Positions 3,416-24,877 are shown, counted from the first letter of the stretch. The stretch is DNA of 32,000 nt from an uncultured Alphaproteobacteria bacterium (GCA_963845385.1 CAWJRW010000006.1:1142274-1174273), one strand, 5' to 3'. Notes: a model not told the origin generated them from the sequence alone. Translations and numbers: made by a program.

Positions 3416-3615
3416 CTTCAAGGGCCTCAAGGGGTTGCGGCCGTGCGGGCGCGCGCGCGAAGAGCTCGAACCTTAACGGGACGCCGCTGGCCGCTTCAAG
3501 CGGAACGCGAGCGTGCCGAAATGGCATGGCTATTTCGCGTCCTTCCTGCAGACTTTTAGGGCAATCTTGCCTAGAATGCCCGGTTAAATCGCTTGATTCG
3601 CGCGAAAGGCCGCGA

Positions 3616-7354: not shown

Positions 7355-10300
7355 CTATTCGGCGGGCGCGCTTTGCAGTTGCGCGGGCTTGGCCTCGGGA
7401 AACTCGCGGTCGCGCTTGGCGATGTAGGTATAGAAGACCGGCACGACGAACAAGGTGAAGAGCGTGCCCACGGACATGCCCGAGAAGATCACGAGCCCGA
7501 TGGAGAAGCGCGCTTCCGCGCCCGCGCCGCTTGCGAGGAGAAGCGGCACGACGCCCACGACCATGGCCGCCGTGGTCATGAGGATCGGCCGCAAGCGCAC
7601 GCGCGCCGCCTCCTCGACCGCGGCGCGGATCGAATAGCCTTCGGCGCGCCGCTCGTTGGCGAATTCGACGATCAGAATGCCGTGCTTGGTGATGAGGCCG
7701 ACCAGCGTGATGAGCCCCACCTGCGTGTAGATGTTGAGCGTGGCGAGCCCGAGATTGAGAGGGACGAGCGCGCCGAAGATCGACAAGCGGAACCGCCATC
7801 ATGACGATGAGCGGGTCGCGGAAGCTCTCGAACTGCGCGGCAAGCACGAGATAAATGACAAGGACGGCAAGCCCGAAAGCAAGCGCCAGCGTGTTGCCCT
7901 CGCTGAGCGAAAGCCGCGCTTGGCCCATGAAATCGTCGAAGAAGCCGTCGGGCATCACTTGCGCGCCGGCCGCGCGCAGGCTTTCGATCGCCTGATCGAG
8001 CGTGACGCCGGGTGCGGGCGCGGCCGTGAGCGTCGCGGAATTGAGCTGATTGAACTGGTCGATCGTCCCGGGGCCCGCGAGAGTCTCGATCCGCGTCACG
8101 GCGGTGAGCGGCACCATCTTGCCGCTCATGCTGCGCACATAGTAGCCGCCCAAGCTTCCGGGGTTGAGCCGGTCGCGCGCGGGCGCCTGGGGAATGACGT
8201 CGTAGCTCCGGTTGTCACGGTCGAAGCGCGAGATGTAGTTCTCGCTCAAGAGCACATTCAGCGTGTTGCCGATATCGGCGACGGTCACGCCGAGGGCCGC
8301 CGCACGCGCGCGGTCGATGAGAATGCGTGCGCGCGGCAAATCGTAGCTCGCCGAATTCTGCACGAAGAAGAAGCGCCCGCTCGACATCGCCTTCATGCGC
8401 ACCTGCTCGGCGACTTCGTAAACCTCGGCCGGCGAGCGGACCGAGCGGATCACATACTGCACGCCGAAGCCGCCGGCGCCGGGAAGCGTGTTGAATGCGA
8501 AGACGGCCGTCTGCAGGCCAGCGACGTTCCCCGCCTTGCGCGCGATGTCCTGCATGACCTGGAATTGGGTCCGGCTCCGCTCGGACCAGGGCTTCAACAC
8601 CCAGCCCGAAATCGCGGCGTTCTCGCCGAAAAAGCCGGTGAACGCAAAGTGGGTCCTCGCCTCCGGCAGGTTTCCCACCGCGCGATCCAGTTGCTGCAGG
8701 TATGTCACCATGTAATCCGGCGTCGCATAGCGCGGCGCATAGCTGATCGCCGGGATGAAACCGATGTCCTCCGGCGGCGCAAGTTCCGAAGGAATGCGAC
8801 CGTAGAGGAAAACCGAAGTTGCGAGAATCAAGCCGAGCGCCGCGAGAACCGACCCGCGCATGCCGAGCACGATCGCGAGCGAGCGCGCATAATAGGCCGA
8901 CAGGCGGCTAAAGCTGCGATCGACGCGCGCCGCGAAACCCGCAGCTACGCTGCCGGGCTTTGCGCGCCGCAAGATGCGCGCCGACATCATGGGCGAGAGT
9001 GTCAGCGCGATGATGCCCGAGATGATGACCGCGCCTGCAAGCATGAAGGCGAACTCGCGAAAGAGCTTGCCCGTGAGCCCCTGGGTGAAGCCGATCGGCG
9101 CGTAGACGGCGGCGAGCGTGATGGTCATCGCGACGACGGGCCGGAAGAGCTCCCGCATCGCGTCGATGGCCGCTTGCGCGGCCTTCTTTCCCATCTCCAG
9201 GTGACGGTTGACGTTTTCGACCACCACGATGGCATCGTCGACGACGAGCCCGATGGCGAGCACCATGGCAAGCAGCGTGAGCAGATTGATCGAGTAGCCC
9301 AGCATGTAAAGCACGAACAAGGCGCCCACGAGCGAAAGCGGGATCGTCACCACGGGGATGAGCATGGAGCGCAGCGAGCCGAGGAAGACGAGGATCACCA
9401 GGACGACGATGATGACCGCTTCGCCGATCGTCTTGTAGACTTCGTCGATCGCCGACCGGATGGCATCGGCCTGATCGTAGAAAATTTCGGTTTCCATGCC
9501 CGGCGGCAGCTCGTGACGGATCGCCGGCAGCTCCGCGCGGACGGCGTCGGACAATGCGACCGCATTGGCGGAGGGCGTCGGTTGAATGACCATGGCCACG
9601 ACTTGCCGGTCGCCCGTTATCATACGCACATCATCGTTGGCGGCTCCGAGCTCGACATGCGCCACGTCGCGTAGCCGCACGACGTCGTCGCCCGAGCCGC
9701 GGATCGGCAGAGCGCCGAACGCATCAGGCGTCTTGAGAGTCGACTCCGCCTCGACCGAAAATGCCGTAAAGGCGTTCTCCGTCTTCCCGGGCGCCGAGAG
9801 AAAATTGGCGTTCCTGATGGCGGTTGCGACTTCGGCCGCCGTGACGTCGTGGGAGGCGAGCAGCACCGGATCGAGCCAGATGCGCATGGCGAAGTCTTGG
9901 CCGCCGATGATGGCGGCGTCCGCCACGCCCGGAACGGTCGCCATACGCGGCTGGATGACGCGCTTGATGTACTCCGTGATCTGAAGGTCGTTCATCCGGT
10001 CGCTGGTGAAGGAAAAAAACAAGAGGCCGTAAGCGCGGCCGGTTCCTTTGATGACGACCGGGTCGTAGGCGTCCTGCGGCAGATCGCGGCGCGCCTGCTG
10101 GGTCTTGGCGATCACCTCGGTGAGGGCGGTATCGGGATTGGTCCCGAGGCGCATCTGAACCGTGACCGTGCTCCGGCCCTGCACGCTCGAGGAAGTCACG
10201 TAATCCACGCCTTCGGCGCTCGCGGCGGCCTTGGCGATGGGTGTCCCGATGAAGCTTTGGACAAGCTCGGAGCTGGCGCCCGGATAGGCGGTCGTGATCG

Positions 10301-11963: not shown

Positions 11964-12623
11964 ATGAGCCTTTCACAGGCCGCCAAGCCCCCCAGGGAGC
12001 GCGCAAACTCGCGCAAGGCCATTCTCGACGCGGCGGTGGCGCTCGTGGCCGAGATGGGCGCCGCCCATCTCACGCTCGAGGCGGTCGCGCAGCGCGCGGG
12101 CATCAGCAAGGGCGGGCTTCTCTACAACTTTCCAACCAAGCTTGCCCTCCTCCAGGCAATGATCGAGAGCTATGTCGAAGGATTCCTCGCGCTTGCAACG
12201 TCGGAAAATGGAAAGGCGCAAGAAGGCGCGAGCCGTGCCTTGCGCGAGCTGCTTCAGTCGAGACTCGGGATTTCGAGCAAAGAGCCCCCTTCCAAGCGGC
12301 CGCACGGAATTCTCGCCGCCATGGTCGAGCATCCGCAACTTCTCGATCCCATTCGCGCGCTCCATCGCACGCTTTGGGCGCGCTTGAAGGAAACGCGGCG
12401 CGATCACGAGAATGTGTTGCTCGGCTGGCTCGCGATCGAAGGCCTCTTGTCGTTCGAGCTGTTCAACACGACCCCGCTCACCGCCGGCGACCGTGCGCGT
12501 CTCGTACGTTTGGCCACGCGGCTCATCGAAGGCGACCTCGTACTCACCGAGGGGGAGCGCGCTCAACCGTCCCAGCCGGCGCACAACATCCGCAAGAAGA
12601 GAGAAGACATCCCCGCGCGTTGA
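11964..12623 (+). CDS. TetR/AcrR-family transcriptional regulator
   Basis: N-terminal HTH ILDAAVALVAEMGAAHLTLEAVAQRAGISKGGLLYNFPTK. The gene is divergent from the RND operon, which is the typical local-repressor arrangement. Confidence 0.9.
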   Translation: MSLSQAAKPPRERANSRKAILDAAVALVAEMGAAHLTLEAVAQRAGISKGGLLYNFPTKLALLQAMIESYVEGFLALATSENGKAQEGASRALRELLQSRLGISSKEPPSKRPHGILAAMVEHPQLLDPIRALHRTLWARLKETRRDHENVLLGWLAIEGLLSFELFNTTPLTAGDRARLVRLATRLIEGDLVLTEGERAQPSQPAHNIRKKREDIPAR

Positions 12624-12712: not shown

Positions 12713-13795
12713 ATGGGAAATCCGCAAGACGAGCCCGAAGCTTCGCCTTCGGCAGCGTCGCGGGAACCCGCTGAGCAGCCGGCAAATCCAGGTCCGGCGC
12801 AAGCGCCTGCAACGCGCGCAGACCTCAGGCCCAACCGCTCGCGCCCCGGCTCTCGCTTCGCCCGAAAGACGCCCGTGCGCCAAGACGCGCCAAGCGAGGA
12901 TGCGCCGGCGCAGGCCCCGCCCTGTCCGAACCTCACGCCGGCCCCATCGCCCGCCTCTGCGCCGACGGCGGCCGCACGCAAGATCGCCTTCATCGCGCGC
13001 CACAGCTTGGCGGTGCGCGCGACGCATTGGCTCAATGTCGTGATCCTCACGATCATGCTGATGAGCGGTCTGCAGATCTTCAACGCACACCCCGCGCTCT
13101 ATTGGGGCGCGCGCTCGGACTTCGAGCGTCCGCTGCTCGCGATGAAGGCCGAGACAGCCGAAGACGGCGCGCTTGTCGGCGTCACGACGCTGTTCGGTTC
13201 CCGTCTCGAGACGACAGGCGTTCTCGGCGTGTCGAACTACAGAGGAGAGCCCGAGGCACGCGGCTTTCCCGCCTGGATCACCCTTCCCGGCGCGCGTTGG
13301 CTCGCCATGGGACGGAGTTGGCATTTCTTCTTCGCCTGGCTCTTCGTGCTCAACGGCCTCGCCTATATCGCTTATGCGCTCATCCGCCGTCACCTGCAGA
13401 AGGATCTCCTGCCGACCAGAGACGAGCTTCGCCATATCGGGCGCACGATCGTGGATCACATGCGCTTCCGCTTCCACAGGGGCCGGGAAGCGCGTCACTA
13501 CAACGTGCTGCAGAAGCTCGCTTATCTCGGCGTCGTGTTCGTGCTGGGACCGCTCGTCGTGCTTACGGGGCTTTCCATGTCGCCCACCATCGACGCGGCC
13601 TTCCCGTGGCTGCCCGAGCTTTTCGGCGGACGGCAAAGCGCGCGCACCATTCATTTCCTCTGCGCGGCGGGCTTCGTCGGGTTCTTTCTGATCCATGTCT
13701 TCATGGTTCTGGTGTCGGGCGTGTGGAACAACATTCGCTCCATGATCACGGGGCGTTATGCGATCGACGTGACGGGCGACGGCGATGGACACTGA
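12713..13795 (+). CDS. cytochrome b561 / PhsC-like membrane di-haem subunit with an N-terminal Pro/Ala-rich extension
   Basis: ATG 12713 is preceded by GGAG (12703-12706). The first 88 or so residues are low-complexity P/A/S. The cytochrome b core follows: RHSLAVRATHWLNVVILTIMLMSGLQIF, SWHFFFAWLFVLNGLAYI, NVLQKLAYLGVVFVLGPLVVLTG, RTIHFLCAAGFVGFFLIHVFMV. It overlaps the next gene by 11 nt. Confidence 0.8.
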   Translation: MGNPQDEPEASPSAASREPAEQPANPGPAQAPATRADLRPNRSRPGSRFARKTPVRQDAPSEDAPAQAPPCPNLTPAPSPASAPTAAARKIAFIARHSLAVRATHWLNVVILTIMLMSGLQIFNAHPALYWGARSDFERPLLAMKAETAEDGALVGVTTLFGSRLETTGVLGVSNYRGEPEARGFPAWITLPGARWLAMGRSWHFFFAWLFVLNGLAYIAYALIRRHLQKDLLPTRDELRHIGRTIVDHMRFRFHRGREARHYNVLQKLAYLGVVFVLGPLVVLTGLSMSPTIDAAFPWLPELFGGRQSARTIHFLCAAGFVGFFLIHVFMVLVSGVWNNIRSMITGRYAIDVTGDGDGH

Positions 13796-14566
13796 GAAAA
13801 AAGGCGGCCGCATCATCGCGCGCCGGCGGTTTCTCGCGCGCAGCGCGGCGCTCACGGGAACGCTGCTCGTCGGCGGCTGCGGCGACGAGATGTCGAGCAA
13901 CGATCGGGTGCAACGCACGCTCGGCCGCGCCGAGGGACTCAACCGAAGGGTTCAGCGCTTTCTCGCGGGGCGCGGCGCGCTGGCGCGCGAATACACGATG
14001 GCCGATCTTTCGCCGGCCTTCAGGGCAAACGGCTCGACGCAGCCCGGCGATCCCGGCTACTTCATCCACGCGCTCAGCCAGTTTGCCAATTGGCGCCTCG
14101 AAGTGGGCGGCCTCGTGCGCAGGCCCATGCGTCTTTCGCTCGCGGAATTGCGCCTCCTGCCCGCGCGCACGCAAATCACGCGCCACGATTGCGTGGAGGG
14201 ATGGAGCTGCATCGGCAAATGGACCGGCGCGCGCTTGGGGGCGGTCCTCGATCTCGCGGAGCCCTTGCCCAACGCGCGATACGTGGTCTTCCACTGCGCC
14301 GACAGGCTGGGCGGAGCCAGTACTACGAGAGCATCGACTTTTTCGACGCCTATCACCCGCAGAGCATTCTCGCTTACGATATGAACGATCTGCCGCTCCC
14401 CATCGCCCACGGCGCGCCCCTGCGCGTCCGGCTCGAGCGCATGCTGGGCTACAAGATGGCGAAATACATCATGCGCATCGAGCTCGTCGAAAGCTTCGGA
14501 CATCTCGGTGACGGCAAAGGCGGCTATTGGGAAGACCGCGGCTACGAGTGGTATGCGGGGATCTGA
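13785..14566 (+). CDS. molybdopterin-dependent oxidoreductase (sulfite-oxidase / YedY-MsrP fold), Tat signal; apparent 1-nt frameshift
   Basis: Tat motif ARRRFLARSAALTG. RHDCVEGWSCIGKWTGARLGAVL and ARYVVFHCADRLGG lie in ORF 13785..14384. The reading then continues YYESIDFFDAYHPQSILAYDMNDLPLPIAHGAPLRVRLERMLGYKMAKYIMRIELV in ORF 14090..14566, with the shift near 14311-14322. The span is 782 nt (3n+2). Confidence 0.85.
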
Positions 14567-14589: not shown

Positions 14590-15882
14590 TTAGTTGCGGT
14601 GGGTCCTGAGAAACAAGGCCGGGATCGCGGAGCACAAAACCACCACTGCGAGCGCGATCATCGCCGGTGTGTAGCTATCCATGCGCTCCTGGAGCCAAGC
14701 GACGCCCGGCGCACCGCCCGAGCTCAGCGGCATGAACAGAGCCATGAGGCCGAAGGCGCGCCCAAACGAGCGTCCGAAGGTATAGGAAAAGGACGCCCCC
14801 ATCATGGGCAAGATGCCGCCCGCGGCAATGCCGAGAAACATCGCGGCGGCTGCTACGCCCGTGAACCCCGACGCGAGCCCAAGCGCGACGTAAGCTAGGG
14901 CGCTCAGGACCGAGGCCAAGCAGAACAAGAGCCGGTGTTCCACGCGGTCGGCGAAATGGCCCCAAACGAATTTCGCCGCAAGAAGCATCGACGCCATCAG
15001 GGAGAACAAGGTCCCGGCCTGCACCGGCGTGAAGCCGCGCTCGGCGGCGTAGGCGGCGAGATTTGCCTGGAAGCCGCCGAGACACGCGACGACGGGAATG
15101 ATGATCAGGCACATGGCCCAAAAGTTCCGCTCACGGAAGATCGCCCGCGCGGTGAACTCCTTTTCGGCGGGAGGCTCGGCTTGCGCCGGACTTTTACCCG
15201 CGGTCAAGTCACTGGCGGCAGGACCGTTTCTAATGACCGCCAAGACCAAAGGCAGGATCAAGACAAGAGAGCCGATCGCAAGCAGGTCGAGCGTGTGCCG
15301 CCAGCCGAATTCCCCGATCATCCACACGACAGTCGGCGGAGTGACGATGGCGCCGAGGGAGATGCCGGTCGAGGCAAGCCCAATTGCGAGCCCGCGGCGC
15401 TTTGGAAACCAGCGCGCCGCCAGCACTTGCGCCGAAAGATTTCCCGCAAAGCTGAAGCCCAAAGCCAAGACCGTGCTGTAAACCACGGTGACTTGCCACA
15501 CGGCCGTCACCATGGACAGCAAGGCCAATCCCGCCGAGAACGCCACCATGCCTCCGGCCACGAGCGCGCGCAGGGACATGGTGTCGATGGCCCGTCCGAC
15601 GAACGGTCCAAGGGCCGCGCCGACAAAAGCGGGAACCGTCATGGCAAGCATGATGTGACTGCGCGCGACGCCGAATTCGGTCACCCATTTCTCGGCGTAG
15701 AAGGTGAAGCAGCTGAACGGGACGGCGAATGTAACCGCCTGAAAGAGGAGGCTTACGGCAAGGACGTTCCAGCCCCAATACCAGGGCGTGCGCAATCTGG
15801 GCATTCGATCGAGCGCCGGGCGCAAAGCCGACGGCCAGCGCAGCACACGAATGCCGCCGACCCGCTTCTCTGCGGTCTGCAT
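14590..15882 (-). CDS. MFS transporter
   Basis: Intact 430-aa ORF with about 12 hydrophobic helices. It has the MFS loop motif (GRAIDTMSLRAL, WFPKRRGLAIG) and a central hydrophilic loop. Confidence 0.9.
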   Translation of the reverse strand: MQTAEKRVGGIRVLRWPSALRPALDRMPRLRTPWYWGWNVLAVSLLFQAVTFAVPFSCFTFYAEKWVTEFGVARSHIMLAMTVPAFVGAALGPFVGRAIDTMSLRALVAGGMVAFSAGLALLSMVTAVWQVTVVYSTVLALGFSFAGNLSAQVLAARWFPKRRGLAIGLASTGISLGAIVTPPTVVWMIGEFGWRHTLDLLAIGSLVLILPLVLAVIRNGPAASDLTAGKSPAQAEPPAEKEFTARAIFRERNFWAMCLIIIPVVACLGGFQANLAAYAAERGFTPVQAGTLFSLMASMLLAAKFVWGHFADRVEHRLLFCLASVLSALAYVALGLASGFTGVAAAAMFLGIAAGGILPMMGASFSYTFGRSFGRAFGLMALFMPLSSGGAPGVAWLQERMDSYTPAMIALAVVVLCSAIPALFLRTHRN

Positions 15883-16015: not shown

Positions 16016-18517
16016 TTGGCGGAAAAGCCGCAGCGCGCTCGGGTGAGGAGAACAAAACCGGTGGCCCCATACAGCTCCGCGACCCCGGTGCGTACCAAGA
16101 GCACGCCGAACGAAATCCTGAGCTTCGTGCTCGTGCGTTTCGCCATTGTGGGCGGGGTGCTCGCGCTTGTGGGCTACATCCTGCGCGCGGATTCCTGGAC
16201 GCATCCCTCGCTGGGCAACATTCTCCTCGACATTTCCGACACGCTCTACAGGACGATCCGCATGTTCTTGCTGGGCGGCGACGTTGCGCGCGGCGAGGGT
16301 GACGGATCGTTGCGCTGGACCGTCTCCACAGGGCTCCTCCATGTGGCGCGATTTCTCGCGCCGGTGTCGTTCTACGGCATGCTCTTTCGGGTGCTCTTCG
16401 GACTGGTGCGGCCGCATCTTCAACGGCGCCGGCTTTCGCACTTGCGCAACCACACCATCGTTTGCGGCCTCGGCGAAACCGGACAGCAATTCGTGCTCAA
16501 CCTCATGCGCCGCGATCCGCAAGCCGCGCGCAGCACCGTCGCCATCGAAAGCCGCGACGTCGAGGCGGCGCGCGCCTTTGCGGCGCCGCTCGGCATCGAG
16601 CTCGTCGAGGCGAGCCCGCGCGAGGCGCAATCGCTCATCCGCGCCAATGTCAAGGACGCCGCAGGTCTCGTCATCGCGACCGACGACGACTCGGCCAATC
16701 TCGACATTGCGGCGCTCTTGCCGGGCCTGGTTGCGACACGCAGCGCCGAGGCTCCCCTCGAAGCGCATATGGAGGTGCGCAACGACACGCTCTTGAAGGA
16801 GCTCACCGACCGCGACGCGTTCTTGCGCCCGTCCGAGCGACTGGAGTTGCGCCCCTTCAACGTCGACGTGCTCGTCGCCCGCCGCTTCTTCGCCGAGCAT
16901 AATTTGATGGCTGAGGCCGAGCTGCGCGACCAGAAGCAGGTTCATTTCCTGTTCGTCGGCTTCGATTCCGTGGGGCTTCAAGTCATGTTGCAGCTCGCGC
17001 GCATCTCGCCCTATCGCAATTTCGCGCGGGCCCTTGTGACGCTCTTGGTCGCAGCGCCCGAGGATTGCCGCGAGGCCTTGAGCGCCACCTATCCCGAGCT
17101 CGCGGGGGGAAACGGCGAGGCGGATGCGGACAAGGTCGTGGACCTCAAGCTCGAGCGCTGGGCCGCCGAGCAGGACGGGCTGCCGCCCGCCTTGATGCGC
17201 GCGGTCGAAGCCGATGCCGAGATCACCGCCATCATCGTCTGCCTCGGCGAAGACGCGCTCAACGCGCGCACCGCGCTTCTCATCCGCTCGCTATCGCAAC
17301 GCGAGGCGCGCTGGCGGGCGCCCATCTACGTCCACCAGCGCGGCGTCGGCGGCCTTGGCCGCTTCGTGCAGGCGAGCACGGGCGCCAAGGACTTCGTCGA
17401 GATCATCGAGCCTTTCGGCATGCTCGACGAGATTTGCCGCGTGGAGGATCTCGGCGGGGAGAGCGACGCGGTGGCGAAAGTCTTGCACGAGGGCTATCTC
17501 GCGCTGCGCAGCGAAAGCGGATCGGGCGAGCCTTCGCCCAGCATGCGGCCATGGAACAGGCTCGACGAGATCTACCGCCGCGCCAACCGCCGCGCGGCCG
17601 ACCATATTCCCGTGAAGCTCGCAAGCGCAGGCTTTCACGTGACGGGCCGTCCCTTCGCGCGCCGGCGTGGAAGGCCTTTCGACCTCAGTCCCGATGAGCT
17701 GCGCGAGCTCGCGCGGCTCGAGCACGAATCCTGGATGAACGGCCAGAAGCTTGCGGGCTGGCGCCGCGGCGCGCTGCGCGACGAGCGGCGCCGCTATCAC
17801 GAGTTCCTTGTTCCCTTCGACGCGCTCTCCAAAGCCGTCCAGGACTACGACTACGATCAAGTGCGGGTCGTCTTGGAGAAGGTCGTGCGCGAAGCCGACG
17901 CCGACAGAGCAACGGTCTTTCGCGAACGCCGCATCGGGCTTTTCGCCGAGCCGCATTTGACCGAAGTGGAGACGGCCGCGGCTCTGCGCGATTTTTCCGA
18001 CCGCACGCTGCCGGCGTTGTTGTCGCGTTACGAGGGCTGCTGGCTCACCATCATGACGCGTCTTTCTCCCGGTGCCGAGCTTTCGCTGTGCGAGACGCTT
18101 GTTTCGACACTCGATGCGGCGGCCCGCAGGGCGTGGCGCTTGATCGTCGTGAGGGGCACTCCGGAAAGCATCGCCTTGCGGGGCGAGGCCGTGGCGCCGA
18201 CGGGTGCGAGCGAGCCCCGGCAAGACGCCATCCGCGCAGACGAGCTGGCTCGGCGTCTTGCCATCATCGCCCGCCCCGAGACCGAGTTTACCGTCGACCT
18301 CACCCCGCCCGCCTTGCGGCTCGAGGATTGGCTTCAAGACGCCTCGCTGCGGGCGCGGGGCGATGCGCGGGCGCGCGACTACCTCTTGCGCAAGTGCGAC
18401 GTGGTCGTCGAGATCCCGGGTAAGGCCGTGCAGAGCGGGGGCATAAGTGTTAATGCCGACGCCGGACGCAGCCCAAGGCCCGGCGCCGAAAGGCTTATTC
18501 GCCTTCCCTCGGGGTGA
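16016..18517 (+). CDS. 2TM channel-like / tandem TrkA_N (RCK-like) / RyR-domain protein with a C-terminal SLOG-like domain
   Basis: 833-codon ORF from TTG 16016. A better start is GTG 16061, preceded by AGGAGA 8 nt upstream. TM helices are ILSFVLVRFAIVGGVLALVGYIL and LLHVARFLAPVSFYGMLFRVLFGLV, flanking a pore-loop-like TLYRTIRMFLLGGD. Rossmann motif TIVCGLGETGQQF is followed by a second, degenerate one (VHFLFVGFDSVG). RyR-domain signatures are KVLHEGYLAL...RPWNRLDEIYRRANRRAADHIPVKL and LARLEHESWMNGQKLAGWRRG...YHEFLVPFDALSKAVQDYDYDQV. The C-terminal 180 or so residues resemble the N-terminal domain of the gene at 20096..21934. Confidence 0.85.
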   Translation: MAEKPQRARVRRTKPVAPYSSATPVRTKSTPNEILSFVLVRFAIVGGVLALVGYILRADSWTHPSLGNILLDISDTLYRTIRMFLLGGDVARGEGDGSLRWTVSTGLLHVARFLAPVSFYGMLFRVLFGLVRPHLQRRRLSHLRNHTIVCGLGETGQQFVLNLMRRDPQAARSTVAIESRDVEAARAFAAPLGIELVEASPREAQSLIRANVKDAAGLVIATDDDSANLDIAALLPGLVATRSAEAPLEAHMEVRNDTLLKELTDRDAFLRPSERLELRPFNVDVLVARRFFAEHNLMAEAELRDQKQVHFLFVGFDSVGLQVMLQLARISPYRNFARALVTLLVAAPEDCREALSATYPELAGGNGEADADKVVDLKLERWAAEQDGLPPALMRAVEADAEITAIIVCLGEDALNARTALLIRSLSQREARWRAPIYVHQRGVGGLGRFVQASTGAKDFVEIIEPFGMLDEICRVEDLGGESDAVAKVLHEGYLALRSESGSGEPSPSMRPWNRLDEIYRRANRRAADHIPVKLASAGFHVTGRPFARRRGRPFDLSPDELRELARLEHESWMNGQKLAGWRRGALRDERRRYHEFLVPFDALSKAVQDYDYDQVRVVLEKVVREADADRATVFRERRIGLFAEPHLTEVETAAALRDFSDRTLPALLSRYEGCWLTIMTRLSPGAELSLCETLVSTLDAAARRAWRLIVVRGTPESIALRGEAVAPTGASEPRQDAIRADELARRLAIIARPETEFTVDLTPPALRLEDWLQDASLRARGDARARDYLLRKCDVVVEIPGKAVQSGGISVNADAGRSPRPGAERLIRLPSG

Positions 18518-18644
18518 AGAGCCCGAGATTCCAATGCAGGATAATCCTGGCAGAGCATTGCGGAGCCGTGCCCGCTTACGCCATGATCGCGCCGCTCATG
18601 GTCGCTCTTAAGCGCCACAATGCGCCAGCCATGAGGGGGATACG

Positions 18645-19994
18645 ATGACCGAGCAGGGCCAAGCGTCGATCGCGTTCATCAGTTACGCCACCCAAGACCG
18701 CGACAAGGCGTTCGAGATTTGCCGCCAGCTCGAGACGCGCGGGCAAAAATGCTGGATCGCGCCGCGCGACGTGCGCGCGGGTCGCGAATACGCCGACGAG
18801 CTCGTGAGCGGCATCGAGCGCGCGCAGGCGCTCGTGCTTGTCCTCTCGAGCGCGGCGAACGATTCCATCTTCGTGCGCCGCGAGGTCGAGCGCGCGGTCA
18901 GCAAAAAGAAGCCGGTCTTTCCCATCCGCATCGAGAACGTGGCGCCCTCGCCTTCGCTTGAATTCTTCGTCTCTTCGACGCACTGGATCGACGCCTGGTC
19001 GGGCGGCTTGTCCGATCACATGGACCTGCTCGCCCGCGATCTTTCGGGCGGCACGTTCGTCATCGCCGAGCCTTCGCCGTTGAAGAAGCAAATTCGCCGC
19101 TGGCAGAACCTCTTGCGTGGTCCCATGCTGATCTATGCCGGCGTCGCCGCGGCGCTCGTCATCGGCGGCATCATCTTCCTCACCCGGGCGCCGAGCGAGG
19201 AGGCGCTCTACGACCGCCAATCCTGGCAGCAGGCCGCGCTCGCCGACACCGTCGACGCCTACAGCACTTATATCCGGCTCGTTCCCGAGGGGCGGCACGT
19301 GCGCGAGGCCAAGCGCCGCGTCGAAACGATGAAGGAAGCCGAAGCCGAGCGCGCCATCCGCACTCAGATCCAAGGGATGCTCGCGAGCTTGGGCTACGAC
19401 GCCGGGCCCGCCGATAACCCGATGAACGACAAGCTCGAAAGCGCGGTGCGGGAGTTTCAGGCGGACAACGCGCTCGGCGTGAACGGCAAAATGACGCCCG
19501 ATCTCGCTGCCGAGCTCAACAAGGTGCGCGGCGCGAAAGCGCCGGAAATCGCCGCGCGCGAACAAGCCTTGGTCAAGAAATCGCGCGTGGCCTATGAGAA
19601 CTTCTTGAGCCGCTTTGCCACCGGCCGCATGGCCGACGACATCCGCGCGCGGCTCGCAAGCTGTCGCACCGAGACCGGGCCCACGACGCGCCAGAAGACG
19701 AGCCAAGTCTCCGCGCAGGGACGCGGCAGCGCAGGCGCCGGCGGGAGCGCGTGTCAGATCGCCGAGAACAATGCGCGGGCCGAGATTCAGTCCGCTTGTC
19801 CGGGCGGCGTCCTGGGCCGGGTCGCGGTAAACTCTTCGCCGGACGCGGGCTCTGCGGCCCTTGGCATCATGGGCAGCATTCTCGGCGGCGCCACGAACCG
19901 CAACGTCAATGTGCAGGCGGCCTGCACGGCGACAGCGAGTGCCAACTGCACCCGCGTCGTAACCGAATCGGCGACCCGGGAAGTCTGCGACTGA
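18645..19994 (+). CDS. TIR-domain protein, single-pass membrane anchor, periplasmic PG_binding_1 domain and Cys-rich tail
   Basis: ATG 18645 is preceded by GAGGGGGA. TIR_2-type motifs: IAFISYATQDRDKAFEI, GQKCWIAPRDVRAGREY, ALVLVLSSAANDSIFVRREVERA (conserved Glu codon at 18882-18884), PVFPIRIE, THWIDAW. A positively charged KKQIRRWQNLLRG precedes the TM helix MLIYAGVAAALVIGGIIFL. PG-binding motif: IQGMLASLGYDAGPADNPMNDKLESAVREFQADNALGVNGKMTPDLAAEL. The last 110 residues contain six Cys. Confidence 0.9.
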   Translation: MTEQGQASIAFISYATQDRDKAFEICRQLETRGQKCWIAPRDVRAGREYADELVSGIERAQALVLVLSSAANDSIFVRREVERAVSKKKPVFPIRIENVAPSPSLEFFVSSTHWIDAWSGGLSDHMDLLARDLSGGTFVIAEPSPLKKQIRRWQNLLRGPMLIYAGVAAALVIGGIIFLTRAPSEEALYDRQSWQQAALADTVDAYSTYIRLVPEGRHVREAKRRVETMKEAEAERAIRTQIQGMLASLGYDAGPADNPMNDKLESAVREFQADNALGVNGKMTPDLAAELNKVRGAKAPEIAAREQALVKKSRVAYENFLSRFATGRMADDIRARLASCRTETGPTTRQKTSQVSAQGRGSAGAGGSACQIAENNARAEIQSACPGGVLGRVAVNSSPDAGSAALGIMGSILGGATNRNVNVQAACTATASANCTRVVTESATREVCD

Positions 19995-20095
19995 AAGCGC
20001 CCGAACAAAGCCGCGCGGCGGAGATTCACATCTCCGCAAGCTCGGAGCCGGGCTCCGCGGCCGAGCGGGCCGCAGCGGGGCGGCTATCCCCCGCA

Positions 20096-21934
20096 CTGCA
20101 TCCGCGCCTCACCTTACGCATCGGCGTCACGGGCCATCGCCTCGGCGGCGAGCGGCTTTCGCAAGACCATCTGCCGGCGATCGAGAAAGCGGTTGCACAC
20201 ATTCTCCTCGTCATCCGCGGCGCCCTCGATGAAGTGCTGATAAAGAACCACGAAATCTTCGCCGCCGCGCCGCCGCTCATCCGCTTCGTCTCGCCGCTCG
20301 CCGAGGGCGCCGATCAGTCGGCGGCCAAGGCCGCGCTCGCCGCAGGCGTCGAGCTCGAATGTCCGCTTCCTTTTGCACGCCGTGATTACGCGCGCGACTT
20401 CAAGAACTTCTTTCGTCGCGCCGCGAATTCTATCGTCTGGTGCGCGCCGCGTCGGCGGTGTTCCAGCTTCCGGGGCGCCGCCGCGACGAGGAGGAAGCCT
20501 ACGAGACGGTGGGCCTGATCACGCTGCGCCAGAGCGATCTCGTTGATCGCAGTCTGGGACGGCAACCTCAAACAGCCTCGGCGCGGCGGCACGGCGGAAA
20601 TGGTGATCAAGGCCTTCGAGAGCGGCATTCCCGTGCTCTGGCTGCACCCCGCGCATCCGGAGCCCCGGCTGCTCGAAAAGGAGGACGCAGCCTTCGGCAC
20701 GACGCTGTGGGAGCTCGTCGCCCAAGGCGGGCAAGACATCGACGATGCGGGCATTCAAACGCTCGTCCACGGTCTCGCCGCCCCGCCGGGCAGCTTCAAG
20801 AGCGAGCGGAATCCTATACAGAGGGAAGCGCGCGCGCGCCTTTGCGCCTTTCTCGGCGAGACGGAAAAATCCGCGCCGCGCCTATGGCTCGCCTATCCGC
20901 TGCTCATCCGCCTCCTCGGAAACAAGCGCGGCGCGCCGCAGCGTCAATCGGCAAGCTTGCGCGAGACCCTCTCCGCGCCGCCGGCCAAGATTCGCAATCT
21001 CGACGCCGCGCGCGCGCTGATCGATACGCGTTACAGCCGCCCCGATCGCCTGAGCGTCCATCTCGGCCAGGTCTATCGCTCGGGCTATGTCATGAATTAT
21101 CTGCTCGCCGCGCTCGCCGTTTTCTTAGCGCTCGCCGGCATCGTCTGGGACCACGACCTCAAGCCGATATGGACCGATCTCGAGCTCGCCGTCATCTCCT
21201 TCATCCTGGCCGTGACCCTGATCGGGAACCGTTTGCGCTGGCATGATCGCTGGCTCGATTATCGCCAGCTCGCCGAGCAGCTTCGCCATTTGCGCTTCCT
21301 GTGCTTTGCGGGCGCACGAACCGAAGACGCGCGCGTGCCCCATGTCAGCGAGGCGATCAAGCCCGGGTCGGCCTGGGCCAGTTGGTATTACCGCGCGAGC
21401 TTGCGCGAATTGCCCATGCTGCATGCGCGCGTCGACCACGCCTATGTCGGCATGCTGAGCGAAGCCGTGGTGAGCGAGATCGAGGAGCAGGCGCATTACC
21501 ACGCGCTCAACGCGCATCGGCTCAAGCATGTCCACGAGGCCCTGCACTATGCGGGAAATTTCTTCTTCGTGCTCACCGCCGTGACCTGTCTCGCGTTCGC
21601 CACGTTTGCGGCGGCGAACAGCGCCTGGCACTTTGCGGGCGCCACGCTCCTGAACTGGGTCATGGCGAGGGTAAGCTTGCTCGGCGGGCTTTTGCCCGCG
21701 ATCGGTGCCGCGCTTTACGGCATCCGCATCCAAGGCGACTTCAAGGCCGCAGCCGAACGCTCGGCCGTGGTCGCGGCGCGCCTGTCGTCCCTCATGCGCG
21801 ACCTCGGCGGAAAACATCCCACCTCATTCGCCAAGGCCGCGCGCATCGCCGACGAGGCCGCCAATATCATGACGGCCGAGCTCTCCGATTGGAGCATGAT
21901 CTTTCGCGAGAAGCCGCTGTCGCTGCCTGCGTGA
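20096..21934 (+). CDS. SLOG (LOG/YpsA-like) domain fused to two SLATT/DUF4231-like 2TM modules; two compensating frameshifts; start codon unresolved
   Basis: Frame A (ORF 19751..20518): LRIGVTGHRLGGERL...LIRFVSPLAEGADQSAAKAALAAGVELECPLPFARRDYARDFKNFF. Frame B (ORF 20440..21246), about 20425-20540: EFYRLVRAASAVFQLPGRRRDEEEAYETVGLITLRQSDL. Frame C (ORF 20543..21934): IAVWDGNLKQPRRGGTAEMVIKAFESGIPVLWL. Then come TM pairs YVMNYLLAALAVFLALAGIVW / LELAVISFILAVTLIG followed by RWHDRWLDYRQLAEQLRHLRF. A second unit follows: EQAHYHALNAHRLKHV, FFFVLTAVTCLAFATFAA / VSLLGGLLPAIGAALYGI. There is no ATG, GTG or TTG in any frame between 19995 and 20125. CTG 20096 is used here only as a placeholder start. Confidence 0.75.
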
Positions 21935-23338
21935 GGGAGCGGCGCTCACGGTGTCCAGTCCGCCCCGAGGCTCGGCCTCACGCGCAAGCCCAATTCTTGC
22001 CAAACGTCGAGCCAAGCCAAGACGGCGGGCGCCGCCCACCCCGCCATCGCATGGGCTTCCGCTAGCTCCTCGCATCTCTTCCGAATTCAGTCCCGAGCCT
22101 CCGAAGGAGATCCCCTTGCCGATATAGTTCGTCTTTCCGACAAGCGTGACAAACTCTTCGCCCACGATTTGCGGCAGACGCGAACCGCCCGATGCCGTGT
22201 TGTTGTCGTAGATGCAATTGTAGGAAAAGCTCGCAAGCGGCGTGGCGGCGCCCGAAGAATAGGATGGGCTTGCCAGCCCGCCCGAGGCGGCAACGCCTGC
22301 GCCCACATTTCGCGCGATGACATTGTTTTCAAAGCTCGGCTCGATGAAGCCTCCTGGAATGTAGCCGCCTGCCCCGTAGGACGAGCTGTAGCCGTCTTGC
22401 TGTCCCGGGAGTCCCGAACTGCCGAGCTGGCTCGCGCCCGCGCCGTAAGTGAGCCCGTCGTCCATGCTCTCATTAAGGCTCGACTGCGCCGCGAAGTCCG
22501 CAAATTCGTCGACCGGCTTCTCGGAATAGATGAGCTGGACGCCGGTGCCATTCTTGTAAACGAGATTTGACGAATACGTGCCCCCGCCATTGATATTGAC
22601 AATGCCTGTTCCCGCGTTCCGATGAATGAGGTTTTGGGCGGCATAGAGCTGGGCGCCGCCGCTCACGACGAGCGCGACCACATTGTCGTCGATGTCGTTG
22701 CCGGCGACGAAATGCTGTCCCGCACCAGTGTTGCGCAGGACGATGCCCACCTTCGACCTTGCGATGTAATTGCCATCGATAGACGACTTCGGGCCGCGAA
22801 TGACGACCGCGTCCGTATCGGGCGTGCCGACAACGGTGCTTCTGCTGAGCACGAAGTCCGACGCGATGACGTCGATGCAGGGCGCATTCTGGTCTGAGCT
22901 CGCGAGCACGACGAGGCCGCGGATCCTGACCGTGCCCTGCGTCACCTTCACGCGAATGCAGGGATTGGCCGCGTTCGTGGCGGAGAGCCGCACCGTTCCG
23001 GAGCGAACCGCGACGAGGGTCAGAGGTTTCCTGATGACCAGGTTGCCCTCGTATTTCCCCGCCTCGATGCGCACCACGCCCGAGGGCTTGGTCCTGTCGA
23101 TCGCATTCTGAATGCTGTCGCCCGGCTTGACCCTGGTTTCGCTTTCGCCGCCGGCATAGGGAGAGGGATAGAACGGAAAGTCGGGCGGCGCGGGTACCGC
23201 ATCCGAGCAGCACGCGGCAGCCGCCATCGAGCTCTTGACGATTAAGAGCGCGAGCAACAACAGCGGCAGGAAAGAGCGCCTTCTCGCATGCCGCATAAGA
23301 GCAAGCCGTTCGCGCATGACCTGTTCCCCCAACTTCAT
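21824..23338 (-). CDS. secreted right-handed parallel beta-helix repeat protein (C-terminal boundary doubtful)
   Basis: ATG 23338 is preceded by AGAGG 7 nt upstream. Signal peptide is RRRSFLPLLLLALLIVKSSMAAAA. Repeated beta-helix rungs are visible (GNLVIRKP, VRIRGLVVLASS, AVVIRGPKSSIDGNYI, VGIVLRNTGAGQHFVAGNDI, ALVVSGGAQLYAAQNLI, GTGIVNINGGG, GTGVQLIY), followed by a Gly/Ser-rich region. The last 80 or so codons (below about 22060) are Arg/Gly/Ala-rich and overlap the convergent gene by 111 nt. The true stop may therefore lie near 22060-22090. Confidence 0.7.
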   Translation of the reverse strand: MKLGEQVMRERLALMRHARRRSFLPLLLLALLIVKSSMAAAACCSDAVPAPPDFPFYPSPYAGGESETRVKPGDSIQNAIDRTKPSGVVRIEAGKYEGNLVIRKPLTLVAVRSGTVRLSATNAANPCIRVKVTQGTVRIRGLVVLASSDQNAPCIDVIASDFVLSRSTVVGTPDTDAVVIRGPKSSIDGNYIARSKVGIVLRNTGAGQHFVAGNDIDDNVVALVVSGGAQLYAAQNLIHRNAGTGIVNINGGGTYSSNLVYKNGTGVQLIYSEKPVDEFADFAAQSSLNESMDDGLTYGAGASQLGSSGLPGQQDGYSSSYGAGGYIPGGFIEPSFENNVIARNVGAGVAASGGLASPSYSSGAATPLASFSYNCIYDNNTASGGSRLPQIVGEEFVTLVGKTNYIGKGISFGGSGLNSEEMRGASGSPCDGGVGGARRLGLARRLARIGLAREAEPRGGLDTVSAAPSRRQRQRLLAKDHAPIGELGRHDIGGLVGDARGLGE

Positions 23339-23356: not shown

Positions 23357-24877
23357 CTAGCGCGCGTCATCCATGGGTTTCGCTCGCGGAGAAGCCGTCT
23401 CTGCCCCTTGCTTCGGACAAGTGGCGCTGGCTTTCGCACTGCTTTCATCGGACCAATTCACTTCCTTGAGCCTGCAGGCGATCTCCTGCTTGTTCGGATA
23501 TTCGGCCTCGCGCGCGGCCAGGAAATAGGTCGCGGCCTGGCCGAAATCGACGCGGACGCCGAGCCCGTCGCGATACATGATCCCGAGATTGTAGAGCGCG
23601 TAAGGATGCCGCTGGTTCGCAGCCTTTTCGAACCAGGTGCGCGCACGGGGATAGCTCACCGGCACGCCATAGCCGTAGTGGTACATGTAGCCGAGCGTGA
23701 ATTGGCTCGGCGCAAATCCGTTCACGGCCGCGGTCCGGATGAGCTTGACGGCTTGAGGCGGCATGAGCTCGCCCGTGACCGGGCCGCCGAGGGACGCCTG
23801 ATAGGCGAGCGTCGCCTTGCGCGTCGTGGGCCCGCACGCATTGTCGATTTCACCGCGATAGAAGCCAACCTCCCGCAACGCTCTCTGGAACGACGCGCAC
23901 TCGATCTTGCCGATGCGGGCGAGCGCGGCTTCCTTGAGAGAGTCGACGCGCGACTCGTCGCTGTAGGGCTTGGGATAGACCTCGAAGGGCGGCTCCCACA
24001 GCTCGGCCATCCAATCGGCCGCGTCCTTGATCTCGCCGCAGTAGTGCTCGTAGCTCGCCCCGGACGACGCCGGAGGACTTCCGCTCTGCGGCGACGTACA
24101 GGACTTGCCATTCACGAGCTGCTCGACCTTTTTTTTCGCGGTCGCGGCATATTTGTAGCCGAGCTCCTCGGCGATCATGAAATAGGCAAGCCCGTCGATG
24201 GGATCTTCTTCAAAAACGCTGGCCGACGGGGATCGCGCCACCGCGTCGTTCGGGTACCGGCAGAGAACACTGTCGGCGACGGCCGGCACTTCGTTCGTCG
24301 CCGGGTTCCAATTCAACATGCGCGGGCAAGCGAAATAGATCTCGCCCAACCGGTAAAAGCCCTCCGCACCCCGGCTCGCCAGAATGTAGATGATGCGCTG
24401 CTCGGCATCGCGCCTCTGCGTCGAGGTCATTTGGTTGTAGATCCGCGGCATGTCGTTCTTGAAGCGATCGGAAAGGCGCGTGCTCAGTTCCTGGGTGAGG
24501 ACCGTCAGGGTGCCCTGGGATCGCTGTTTGTTGATGAGGGCGAGGTACGTCCACACATAGGCTTCGACCACATCCCGGGGTACATACTGCAGCGCCAGCT
24601 TCCTGCCGCTCGCGCTCTTCCCCGTCATCGCGGTCTTTGCCGGAAAATACAGATCAGCGAGCTGGAGCTGGGCGTCGATGTCGTCGTTGACCCAGGCCGC
24701 GTCGCGCCAGAGCGAGATGGCGCGCGCATAGTCGCCCTGCTCGAAGGCGCGCGCACCCTCGGCATATTCGGCGGCGGGGGCCGGAGTGGCCCGCGTCAGG
24801 CAGGCTAGGAGAGCGAGAAGGACGCCCGCGCGGCGCAAGACGCACAGGACGCCAGCCTTTGGATCGCTGTCCCCCAA
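23357..24877 (-). CDS. secreted Sel1-like repeat (TPR-family) protein with an internal PG_binding_1 domain
   Basis: Signal peptide LRRAGVLLALLACLTRATPAPAAE. The start is TTG 24877 or the in-frame TTG at 24838. Sel1-type repeats: EGARAFEQGDYARAISLWRDAA and GYMYHYGYGVPVSYPRARTWFEKAANQRHPYALYNLGIMYRDGLGVRVDFGQAATYF. PG-binding motif: FQRALREVGFYRGEIDNACGPTTRKATLAYQASLGGPVTGEL. Confidence 0.85.
   Translation of the reverse strand: MGDSDPKAGVLCVLRRAGVLLALLACLTRATPAPAAEYAEGARAFEQGDYARAISLWRDAAWVNDDIDAQLQLADLYFPAKTAMTGKSASGRKLALQYVPRDVVEAYVWTYLALINKQRSQGTLTVLTQELSTRLSDRFKNDMPRIYNQMTSTQRRDAEQRIIYILASRGAEGFYRLGEIYFACPRMLNWNPATNEVPAVADSVLCRYPNDAVARSPSASVFEEDPIDGLAYFMIAEELGYKYAATAKKKVEQLVNGKSCTSPQSGSPPASSGASYEHYCGEIKDAADWMAELWEPPFEVYPKPYSDESRVDSLKEAALARIGKIECASFQRALREVGFYRGEIDNACGPTTRKATLAYQASLGGPVTGELMPPQAVKLIRTAAVNGFAPSQFTLGYMYHYGYGVPVSYPRARTWFEKAANQRHPYALYNLGIMYRDGLGVRVDFGQAATYFLAAREAEYPNKQEIACRLKEVNWSDESSAKASATCPKQGAETASPRAKPMDDAR

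Follow-up and report, generated by a model that had tools for sequence, protein, structure and literature searches.

We analysed a stretch of 32,000 nucleotides (nt) of DNA from an uncultured Alphaproteobacteria bacterium (GCA_963845385.1 CAWJRW010000006.1:1142274-1174273), referred to below as the window, in which three genes follow one another on the same strand (Table 1). Gene 1 encodes a membrane protein with tandem RCK, RyR and SLOG-like domains, gene 2 encodes a membrane-anchored TIR protein, and gene 3 encodes a protein in which a SLOG domain is joined to a SLATT-family membrane part. A first-pass annotation of the window, made from the sequence alone, had described the trio as three open reading frames (ORFs) separated by short gaps and bounded by a divergent MFS gene and a convergent beta-helix gene, and had proposed that it is an undescribed, Thoeris-like defence island, in which one TIR protein makes a signal that is received by two SLOG-bearing membrane proteins. 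Both bounding genes and the layout of the trio were confirmed, genes 1 and 2 being separated by 127 nt, and genes 2 and 3 by 101 nt (with gene 3 counted from about 20096), but gene 3 turned out not to be a single ORF in this sequence. The public record annotates gene 1 as an 818-aa version (P0127). As a reference, we used a locus from a JGI metagenome (L001; about 90% DNA and 80% protein identity), which carries an intact orthologue of gene 3 encoding a protein of 611 aa (P0001).

Table 1. Genes, domains and lesions of the three-gene locus and its bounding genes; positions are counted from the first nucleotide of the window.
Feature	Position	Strand	Residues	Description	Basis
Gene 1	16016..18517	+		833-aa membrane protein; transmembrane helices, tandem RCK, RyR, C-terminal SLOG-like domain	ORF
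Gene 1, membrane region	16106..16441	+	31-142	three long helices, channel-like	AlphaFold2, Foldseek
Gene 1, gating-ring region	16457..17455	+	148-480	tandem RCK (TrkA_N-type Rossmann)	Pfam, Foldseek
Gene 1, RyR domain	17705..17878	+	564-621		Pfam, Foldseek
Gene 1, C-terminal domain	17915..18454	+	634-813	Rossmannoid, SLOG-homologous	hhalign
Gene 2	18645..19994	+		449-aa single-pass membrane TIR protein	ORF, Pfam
Gene 2, TIR_2 domain	18675..19004	+	11-120	cytoplasmic side	Pfam
Gene 2, transmembrane helix	19110..19166	+	156-174	predicted	Kyte-Doolittle
Gene 2, PG_binding_1 domain	19359..19511	+	239-289	putatively periplasmic	Pfam
Gene 3	20096..21934	+		SLOG-SLATT gene, about 611 aa when frame-corrected; disrupted in the window	alignment to P0001
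Gene 3, SLOG domain	20096..20698	+	about 1-200	YpsA/DprA-like	AlphaFold2 model of P0001, Foldseek
Gene 3, first module	20999..21310	+	about 301-404	two transmembrane helices, DUF4231/SLATT	Pfam
Gene 3, second module	21437..21904	+	about 447-602	two transmembrane helices, helical; no recognised family	AlphaFold2
Gene 3, CTG at start position	20096..20098	+		TTG start in L001 orthologue	
Gene 3, first frameshift	20406..20407	+		+2 nt insertion	DNA alignment to L001
Gene 3, in-frame TGA	20516..20518	+		in the shifted frame	three-frame translation
Gene 3, second frameshift	20542	+		+1 nt insertion, restores frame from 20543	alignment to L001
MFS gene	14590-15882	-		divergent, bounds the trio	
Beta_helix gene	21824-23338	-		convergent, bounds the trio	

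The product of gene 2 contains a TIR_2 domain (Pfam, E = 2.4e-21), accompanied by a match to ThsB_TIR (E = 1.1e-4) and a weaker match to TIR. Glu80, encoded by 18882-18884, occupies the catalytic position in the alignment column S-x-W-x-x-x-E, so that the TIR_2 domain with a conserved Glu, as reported by the first-pass annotation, was confirmed, and Glu is found in this column in 51 of 62 TIR proteins (gene 2 and the partners of gene 3 homologues described below). The TIR domain is followed by a predicted transmembrane (TM) helix, which has a Kyte-Doolittle window mean of 1.74 and is preceded by a Lys/Arg-rich stretch, and by a PG_binding_1 domain (Pfam, E = 2.5e-10, 40.8 bits with a cut-off of 23). 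Since a TM helix precedes this peptidoglycan (PG)-binding domain, and given what the domain binds, we place it in the periplasm; the protein would thus consist of a cytoplasmic TIR domain, one TM helix and a periplasmic PG-binding domain. Its orthologue in L001 is 84% identical. The partner TIR proteins have their TIR domain at the N-terminus as well, and in most of them a hydrophobic helix also follows it; their C-terminal parts vary, being of the PG_binding, TPR, FGE-sulfatase, DUF4189 or WD40 type. Membrane anchoring combined with a periplasmic domain is the clearest departure from the known ThsB proteins, and it had been overlooked in the first-pass annotation.

A separate observation concerns the TIR partners from Marinicaulis / Parvularculaceae (L010, L011, L014, L017, L019, L022 and L026), which bear Gln at the catalytic position. 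The TIR proteins of this group lack the S-x-W motif, yet their genes lie directly downstream of the SLOG-SLATT gene, with gaps of 77-105 nt. Judging from their sequences, these partners may be non-catalytic.

The N-terminal domain of the gene 3 protein carries the motifs GVTGHR, SPLAEGADQ, LIAVWDG and GGTAEMV, from which a LOG/SLOG-like domain had been suspected. No Pfam SLOG model matched this domain of the window protein, a PDB sequence search with the profile of the gene 3 family gave nothing meaningful, and weak Pfam matches to YAcAr or DprA (DNA_processg_A) were found in 5 of 36 family members. The SLOG fold was recognised by Foldseek in the AlphaFold2 model of P0001 (114 homologues; pLDDT 91.5, pTM 0.91): the best PDB match of the N-terminal domain was YpsA (2nx2, E = 5e-4, TM-score 0.66 on the target), followed by DprA, ShosA, TM1055, Moco carrier protein and LOG, and the Foldseek probability was 1.00 for 2nx2, 3uqz, 4ljk, 1rcu, 2iz7 and 5wq3. 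Viral DprA-like and YspA SLOG proteins in BFVD matched the domain as well.

The SLOG domain is followed by two modules, each with two TM helices (2TM), both of which had initially been taken for SLATT/DUF4231. The first module matched DUF4231 (Pfam, E = 1.4e-7, 32.3 bits with a gathering cut-off of 24.7), while its match to SLATT_1, at 31.7 bits, was below the NCBIfam cut-off of 41; in the family, DUF4231 was found in 33 of 36 members, and matches to SLATT_1, 3 or 4 in a few. The name SLATT stands for SMODS and SLOG-associating 2TM, and thus itself records an association with SLOG. The second module, modelled as helices 447-510, 515-546, 548-571 and 577-602, had no SLATT or DUF4231 match in Pfam or NCBIfam, and only the initial assignment of the first module could be upheld. 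A weak match of the second module to the PADLOC '2TM effector' model (E = 0.029) was seen. Internal duplication as the origin of the two modules was rejected, since hhalign detected no similarity between them.

The TrkA_N-like and RyR domains predicted in gene 1 were both recognised by Pfam, the former at residues 148-235 (E = 5.1e-11), and the latter at 37.1 bits with a cut-off of 27.4 (E = 3.8e-9). The AlphaFold2 model of the protein (pLDDT 75.7) matched the tandem-RCK structures of GsuK, TrkA and CASTOR in Foldseek (E from 6e-9 to 5e-7), with full-length GsuK chains aligning over 500-536 columns; full-length MthK and Slo1 chains and the RyR repeat structures 6uhi and 9l9b were matched as well. 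Thus, RCK gating domains appear to be joined in gene 1 to a pore module, the TM part being placed at low confidence. The gene 1 family is much larger than the set of trios, with 593 library representatives at E <= 1e-30.

The C-terminal domain of gene 1 had been regarded as a copy of the SLOG domain of gene 3, and this homology was borne out by profile comparison. A profile of 79 gene 1 C-terminal domain sequences, compared by hhalign with the profile of the gene 3 N-terminal domain, gave a probability of 99.0% (E = 5e-18); the alignment spans 146 columns and keeps the motifs in register, and the same beta-alpha order is seen in the AlphaFold2 model of the gene 1 domain. The BLASTP comparison of the gene 1 C-terminus with gene 3 was not significant, and a smaller profile of 9 sequences gave a suggestive 24% in hhalign; by these two comparisons the homology would have been rejected. 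Taken together, the profile, fold and hhalign results agree with the architecture initially proposed for the locus: one TIR protein and two proteins that carry the same SLOG-type domain on different membrane modules.

The gene 3 family is large, with over 341 homologues that are full-length at about 600 aa; when GTDB species-representative genomes were scanned, 545 stretches of the SLOG-SLATT family were confirmed by tblastn. Linkage was assessed in 81 loci, namely L001 and the 80 best from the genome scan, in which TIR ORFs near the SLOG-SLATT gene were found with an iterated TIR profile. Such an ORF was present in 59 of the 81 loci, and Pfam confirmed TIR_2 in 61 of 62 proteins (gene 2 of the window and the 61 TIR ORFs from the loci). 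The gap between the TIR and SLOG-SLATT genes had a median of 606 nt; it was at most 150 nt in 16 cases and at most 3 kb in 56. The TIR partner may lie on either side of the SLOG-SLATT gene and in both orientations. In about half of the 22 loci without a clear TIR gene, the contig breaks off within 3 kb. Represented among the loci are Alphaproteobacteria, Acidobacteriota, Dadabacteria, Thermodesulfobacteriota and others, and a Betaproteobacterial plasmid.

In 14 loci, a gene 1-like gene directly adjoins the SLOG-SLATT gene, and 11 of these loci also have a TIR gene. Three arrangements of the trio, in which gaps may be as short as 3-8 nt, were seen: gene 1-TIR-gene 3 in the window, L001 and L083; gene 3-gene 1-TIR in L084 (8-nt gap) and L004; and gene 3-gene 1 followed by convergent TIR genes in Acidobacteriaceae. 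Co-occurrence, which had been named as a check of the initial proposal, is thus found in several phyla. These data also bear on the explanation that the adjacency is due to chance and that the three genes are functionally unrelated. The closest relatives, L001 and L083, share the whole neighbourhood with the window, so synteny among them proves nothing, and some members of the family stand alone. Against that, most of the sampled loci, across several phyla, have a TIR gene near the SLOG-SLATT gene, the trio is kept through all three orders with very short gaps, and a specific SLOG domain family is common to genes 1 and 3. Chance adjacency is strongly disfavoured, and we consider it extremely improbable. 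The trio is a real, conserved module. We read the TIR and SLOG-SLATT pair as its probable core, with gene 1 in an accessory role as a second receiver.

In addition to being linked, all three genes are under purifying selection, the level of which is the same as in neighbouring housekeeping genes: the ratio of nonsynonymous to synonymous substitution rates (dN/dS) is 0.20 for gene 1, 0.16 for gene 2 and 0.20 for gene 3, and 0.16 and 0.19 for two housekeeping neighbours. Among the parts of gene 1, the C-terminal domain has the highest dN/dS (0.39).

Gene 3 is interrupted in the window. In its start frame (the LRIGVTGHR frame), no ATG, GTG or TTG is present between 19991 and 20140, and its open part is only an ORF of 463 aa (20543-21934), which is annotated in the public record as P0002. 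The locus could be a decaying remnant in this genome, with nothing functional here whatever the family does elsewhere. The three lesions of gene 3 (the CTG start, the +2 insertion, and the +1 insertion with the in-frame TGA), an independent frameshift in the SLOG-coding part of the L083 gene 3, and the elevated dN/dS and degenerate motifs of the gene 1 C-terminal domain are what would be seen in such a remnant. However, the two insertions sum to 3 nt, the 46 codons between the frameshifts have a dN/dS of 0.17 in the corrected frame, and the dN/dS of the whole gene 3 equals that of its intact neighbours. Moreover, a housekeeping gene 6 kb upstream, the msrP-like Oxidored_molyb gene (13785-14566), is also split over two frames by a 1-nt deletion (at 14315-14342, GCC-AGTAC vs GCCAAGTAT in L001 and L083), which suggests assembly indels. 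We therefore regard decay as unlikely. As the msrP-like gene is frameshifted too and dN/dS is about 0.2, an assembly error in gene 3 is plausible, as are assembly indels scattered in this sequence; the indels of gene 3 do not lie in homopolymer runs. Either the assembly is in error here or gene 3 was inactivated very recently, and in both cases purifying selection has acted on it up to a very recent time.

In L083, a relative that is 67% identical, the independent frameshift lies in the SLOG-coding part of gene 3 (11986-12174 and 12146 onward). In the protein called there (P0003, 581 aa), both the first strand and the GHR motif are missing.

On balance, and with a modest lean in its favour, we read the trio as a Thoeris-type module for TIR nucleotide signalling that is associated with the membrane. 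In such a module, gene 2 would be the signal generator: a change in the envelope or peptidoglycan, for which phage entry, phage lysis and other wall damage are candidate triggers, would bring TIR domains together, and these would convert NAD+ into an ADP-ribose-derived signal, probably a cyclic ADP-ribose (cADPR) isomer. Gene 3 would be the main receiver, in which binding of the signal by the YpsA-like SLOG domain would open or oligomerise the DUF4231/SLATT membrane part and cause collapse of the membrane potential. Because gene 1 carries the same SLOG domain, the same signal would also change ion conductance; gene 1 would act as a second, accessory receiver of the GsuK/CASTOR-like kind, its SLOG domain coupling the signal to RCK-gated conductance. 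The physiological role may be abortive-infection defence or envelope-stress signalling. As the TIR domain is tethered to the membrane and the predicted periplasmic domain varies between lineages, the trigger is suggested to be read at the envelope.

The same domains allow for a different division of labour, in which the TIR protein would be an NAD+-depleting effector or a scaffold, and the SLOG domains would be nucleotide enzymes (LOG-like N-glycosidases) or sensors of NAD+/ADP, with the RCK part of gene 1 also reading NAD+/ADP. Many bacterial TIR proteins deplete NAD+ (bioRxiv 10.64898/2025.12.03.692087), the SLOG superfamily includes N-glycosidases, and gene 3 keeps a GGT-x-E motif resembling that of LOG. 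Additionally, GsuK, the top fold match of gene 1, was solved with ADP and NAD bound, according to the titles of the structures, and Gln in place of the catalytic Glu in seven partner TIR proteins suggests a non-catalytic role in some lineages. Nevertheless, the pairing of a TIR protein with a SLOG membrane protein fits the generator-receiver pattern of Thoeris types I, III and IX, the nearest structural relatives of the SLOG domain are the non-LOG YpsA and DprA clades, and most partner TIR proteins keep the catalytic Glu. We consider this division of labour improbable.

The signalling module proposed here was compared with known systems. A December 2025 preprint by Yirmiya et al. (bioRxiv 10.64898/2025.12.03.692087) lists 29 putative Thoeris types, among which the combinations of TIR with SLATT (type VII, with canonical cADPR) and TIR with an ion channel (type X) were verified, and describes rare operons with two effectors (ThsH and ThsI) that answer one signal. 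TIR-SLATT neighbourhoods, and SLATT as a membrane effector regulated by ADP-ribose derivatives, had been predicted earlier (PMC9503650), and the same work tied cADPR sensing to the YpsA-like SLOG clade. Given these types, the SLOG membrane candidates that the preprint also lists and the earlier prediction, to call the system undescribed, as was initially done, is too strong. In the literature searched, we found no description of the SLOG-SLATT effector family, of a membrane-anchored TIR protein with a periplasmic domain, or of one SLOG sensor reused on two membrane proteins. As the trio recurs together in distant bacteria, it probably represents a new Thoeris-type variant of TIR signalling. 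The general features of Thoeris are present: a TIR protein with the catalytic Glu and an adjacent effector with a SLOG domain, co-located in the 59 loci mentioned above.

Type VII Thoeris (the TIR protein ThsB with the SLATT protein ThsH) resembles the window in that a TIR gene adjoins the gene of a SLATT-family membrane protein, and in its proposed logic, by which the TIR product activates a membrane-breaching SLATT assembly. The SLATT-family 2TM domain that characterises type VII effectors is present in gene 3. However, ThsH is annotated as SLATT only, with ligand pockets proposed between SLATT protomers, whereas gene 3 has a separate YpsA-like SLOG domain at its start and, unlike ThsH as described, a second, unclassified 2TM module after SLATT; this distinction is drawn from the description of ThsH. 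The six type VII TIR domains available for inspection look ThsB-like by eye, whereas gene 2 has a TIR_2-type domain on a membrane-anchored protein with a predicted periplasmic domain.

Type I Thoeris (ThsB with ThsA, a SIR2-SLOG protein) also pairs a TIR generator with a SLOG-bearing effector, but its output is NAD+ depletion, whereas the putative output in the window is a membrane module. No SIR2 match was found in any of the three proteins with Pfam, NCBIfam or PADLOC, and Macro and nuclease domains were likewise absent from them, as originally stated. The ThsA models of PADLOC did not match the trio, the ThsB models matched gene 2 weakly (E = 0.015-0.057), and a PADLOC run, one of the checks proposed at the outset, recognised no known system.

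Type X and the two-effector operons resemble the window in having, respectively, a channel-like protein in a TIR operon, as gene 1 would be, and two effectors per TIR signal, for which they provide a precedent. The TIR proteins of type X belong to another cluster, and gene 1 differs from the type X channel, as far as its description goes, by its tandem RCK, RyR and SLOG domains and the lack of a K+ filter. Unlike the ThsH and ThsI of the two-effector operons, both putative receivers in the window carry the same sensor domain. Among channels and their regulators, GsuK, MthK, CASTOR and TrkA share with gene 1 the tandem-RCK fold on an N-terminal helical membrane region; gene 1 differs from GsuK, MthK and CASTOR in that it adds the RyR and SLOG domains, has no TVGYG filter, and its pore loop is not conserved. 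Similarly, the SLOG superfamily proteins YpsA, DprA and YspA are the best structural matches of the gene 3 N-terminal domain, but, unlike in these proteins, the SLOG domains of the trio are fused to SLATT modules or to an RCK channel-like protein.

The candidate system called 'SLOG and 4TM' by Yirmiya et al. (from Streptomyces sp. GKU 895 and Ca. Nitrospira nitrosa) is like the window in that SLOG and four TM helices are encoded beside a TIR gene. A search with the Nitrospira TIR protein gave only short relatives with uninformative neighbours. The comparison was thus made indirectly, with a relative from a metagenome scan (L089), the TIR protein of which is 60% identical to the Ca. Nitrospira nitrosa TIR protein of the preprint, and not with the published gene itself. 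In L089, a protein of about 400 aa (2829-4028), with a SLOG domain of the GGGNST-type motif and four consecutive TM helices, is encoded directly upstream of a 463-aa protein (4035-5426) with a single, C-terminal TIR_2 match in Pfam; a second, N-terminal TIR-like region of the latter was seen by eye only and had no Pfam match. From its sequence, this pair is probably the '4TM SLOG' class of the preprint. Its TIR protein shows no hydrophobic segment by eye and looks soluble, whereas gene 2 is predicted to be membrane-anchored. The assignment of gene 3 to the '4TM SLOG' class was rejected: hhalign of the L089 protein with the gene 3 family gave a probability of 0.6%, and tblastn gave no match. 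As the two are unrelated, the effector of the window is not of this class.

Several observations weigh against the trio being a Thoeris-type signalling module. At the level of the proteins, the membrane and pore region of gene 1 is poorly modelled (pLDDT 44-68 in AlphaFold2), and gene 1 has no TVGYG-type selectivity filter; the segment that would correspond to it, MFLLGGDVARGEG, varies among homologues and is not conserved. Hence, of the MthK-like channel initially proposed, the tandem-RCK, channel-like fold stands, but the K+ selectivity filter does not; "channel-like" is a fair description, while "K+ channel" is not supported. The SLOG motifs of the window gene 1 are degenerate (IGLFAEP vs GVTGHR, SPGAEL vs LAEGAD, and SGGISV vs GGTAEMV), one gene 1 relative has neither of the other two genes beside it, gene 3 is disrupted in the window and also frameshifted, at a different place, in L083, and seven partner TIR proteins have Gln at the catalytic position. 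At the level of the loci, 10 of those without TIR have about 2.7-10 kb of sequence on both sides. Additionally, no defence was seen in E. coli with the two "SLOG and 4TM" systems tested by Yirmiya et al., which are, however, of a different family, and neither gene 1 nor gene 3 is covered by a model in PADLOC v2. As for distribution and context, none of 50,697 phage records contained the SLOG-SLATT family, and of 72,556 plasmids only 3 did, the TIR and SLOG-SLATT pair lies in a conserved chromosomal context in Sphingomonadales, and near the trio in the window, L001 and L083 no defence or mobile-element gene was seen, the neighbours being housekeeping genes.

Thus, of the defence system that had been proposed, the linkage of TIR and SLOG stands, but the defence role does not follow from the surroundings or from the distribution in phages and plasmids, and "island" is a misnomer for a trio among housekeeping genes. 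The other genes of the window are LeuA, SmpB, RND efflux, TetR, MsrPQ-like, MFS, Beta_helix, PG-binding/Sel1, Na/Ca exchanger, cyclase and NRPS-like, and the neighbours in L092 and L093 are likewise housekeeping. Scans of the window for promoters and terminators gave nothing beyond chance.

The genomic context favours another role of the same chemistry, which is the main rival of an anti-phage one: a resident pathway of envelope surveillance or ion homeostasis that tunes membrane conductance and does not kill, in which the TIR protein would report the status of the wall or periplasm through its periplasmic domain (PG-binding in the window; TPR, WD40, FGE-sulfatase or DUF4189 in other loci). 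This would fit the housekeeping surroundings, the conserved chromosomal context in close relatives and in Sphingomonadales, the essential absence of the family from phages and plasmids, a membrane-anchored TIR protein with varied domains of extracytoplasmic type, the large RCK/RyR family of gene 1, with at least one close relative standing alone, and a purifying selection equal to that on neighbouring genes. On the other hand, all bacterial TIR-signalling systems characterised in the Thoeris literature surveyed are anti-phage, SLATT is known as a cell-killing effector (bioRxiv 10.64898/2025.12.03.692087), one Acidobacterial locus lies beside an MmeI-like restriction-modification gene, and patchy distribution with permuted gene order is typical of defence modules. 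With these points set against each other, we judge a purely non-anti-phage role to be rather unlikely.

A related reading, which we put forward tentatively as possible although doubtful, combines elements of both. The TIR protein may be an outside-in receptor, in which the periplasmic sensor domain controls the cytoplasmic TIR domain through the single TM helix, and the TIR product gates two conductances through the shared SLOG domain. It would serve resident envelope surveillance, possibly sensing phage at the wall, and would not be a cytosolic phage sensor. The topology would be analogous to that of Toll-like receptors.

Some further observations were made in the vicinity of the trio and in related loci. 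At its 3' end, gene 3 is overlapped over 111 nt by the Beta_helix gene, which shares only 39% identity with its counterpart in L001, compared with 77-87% for neighbouring genes; the C-terminal 40 residues of the Beta_helix protein look out of frame. A second PG_binding_1 protein, with Sel1 repeats, is encoded two genes downstream of the trio (23357-24877, minus strand); its gene is shared with L001 and L083, but not with trio versions that are more distant. Both genes were considered as parts of the system and rejected, as they are not conserved beyond close relatives, and the L084 and L004 versions lack them.

In the Sphingomonad loci (L076 at 9057-9467 and 9701-9949; L056, L064, L052, L072, L054, L063 and L080), a divergent ORF of about 135 aa separates the genes of a TIR-TM-TPR protein and the SLOG-SLATT protein; it has no Pfam match, is sometimes present twice, and may be a third component of the Sphingomonad version. 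The housekeeping neighbours that the Sphingomonad loci have in common, named by eye from the sequence, are presumably IspG, EamA, an isoaspartyl peptidase-like protein and an SPFH protein. On the megaplasmid pSBC2-4 of Caballeronia sp. SBC2 (L095, NZ_CP049320.1 20517-33989), RefSeq annotates DUF4231, TIR and 1190-aa WD40 proteins in a row, which makes this a plasmid version of the pair from Betaproteobacteria. The only defence-like neighbourhood that we saw is in a metagenome-assembled genome of Acidobacteriaceae (L094, 728-7773), where genes for an MmeI/Eco57I-like methyltransferase-restriction protein, a 240-aa TIR protein and a 748-aa protein of no known kind lie just upstream of the pair of SLOG-SLATT and gene 1-like genes.

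Known bacterial TIR signalling, as in Thoeris, pairs cytosolic TIR sensors with a single effector. In the module described here, the main putative effector joins a YpsA-like SLOG sensor to a SLATT module and thus offers a separable ligand-binding domain, which could help to identify the signal. Gene 1 reuses the same sensor on an RCK/RyR channel-like scaffold, and would be a natural case of one signal with two membrane outputs. If the module is defensive, the SLOG-SLATT family, which is absent from PADLOC v2, would be a new effector family for defence annotation. If it is not, TIR-derived nucleotides would have a physiological signalling role in bacteria.

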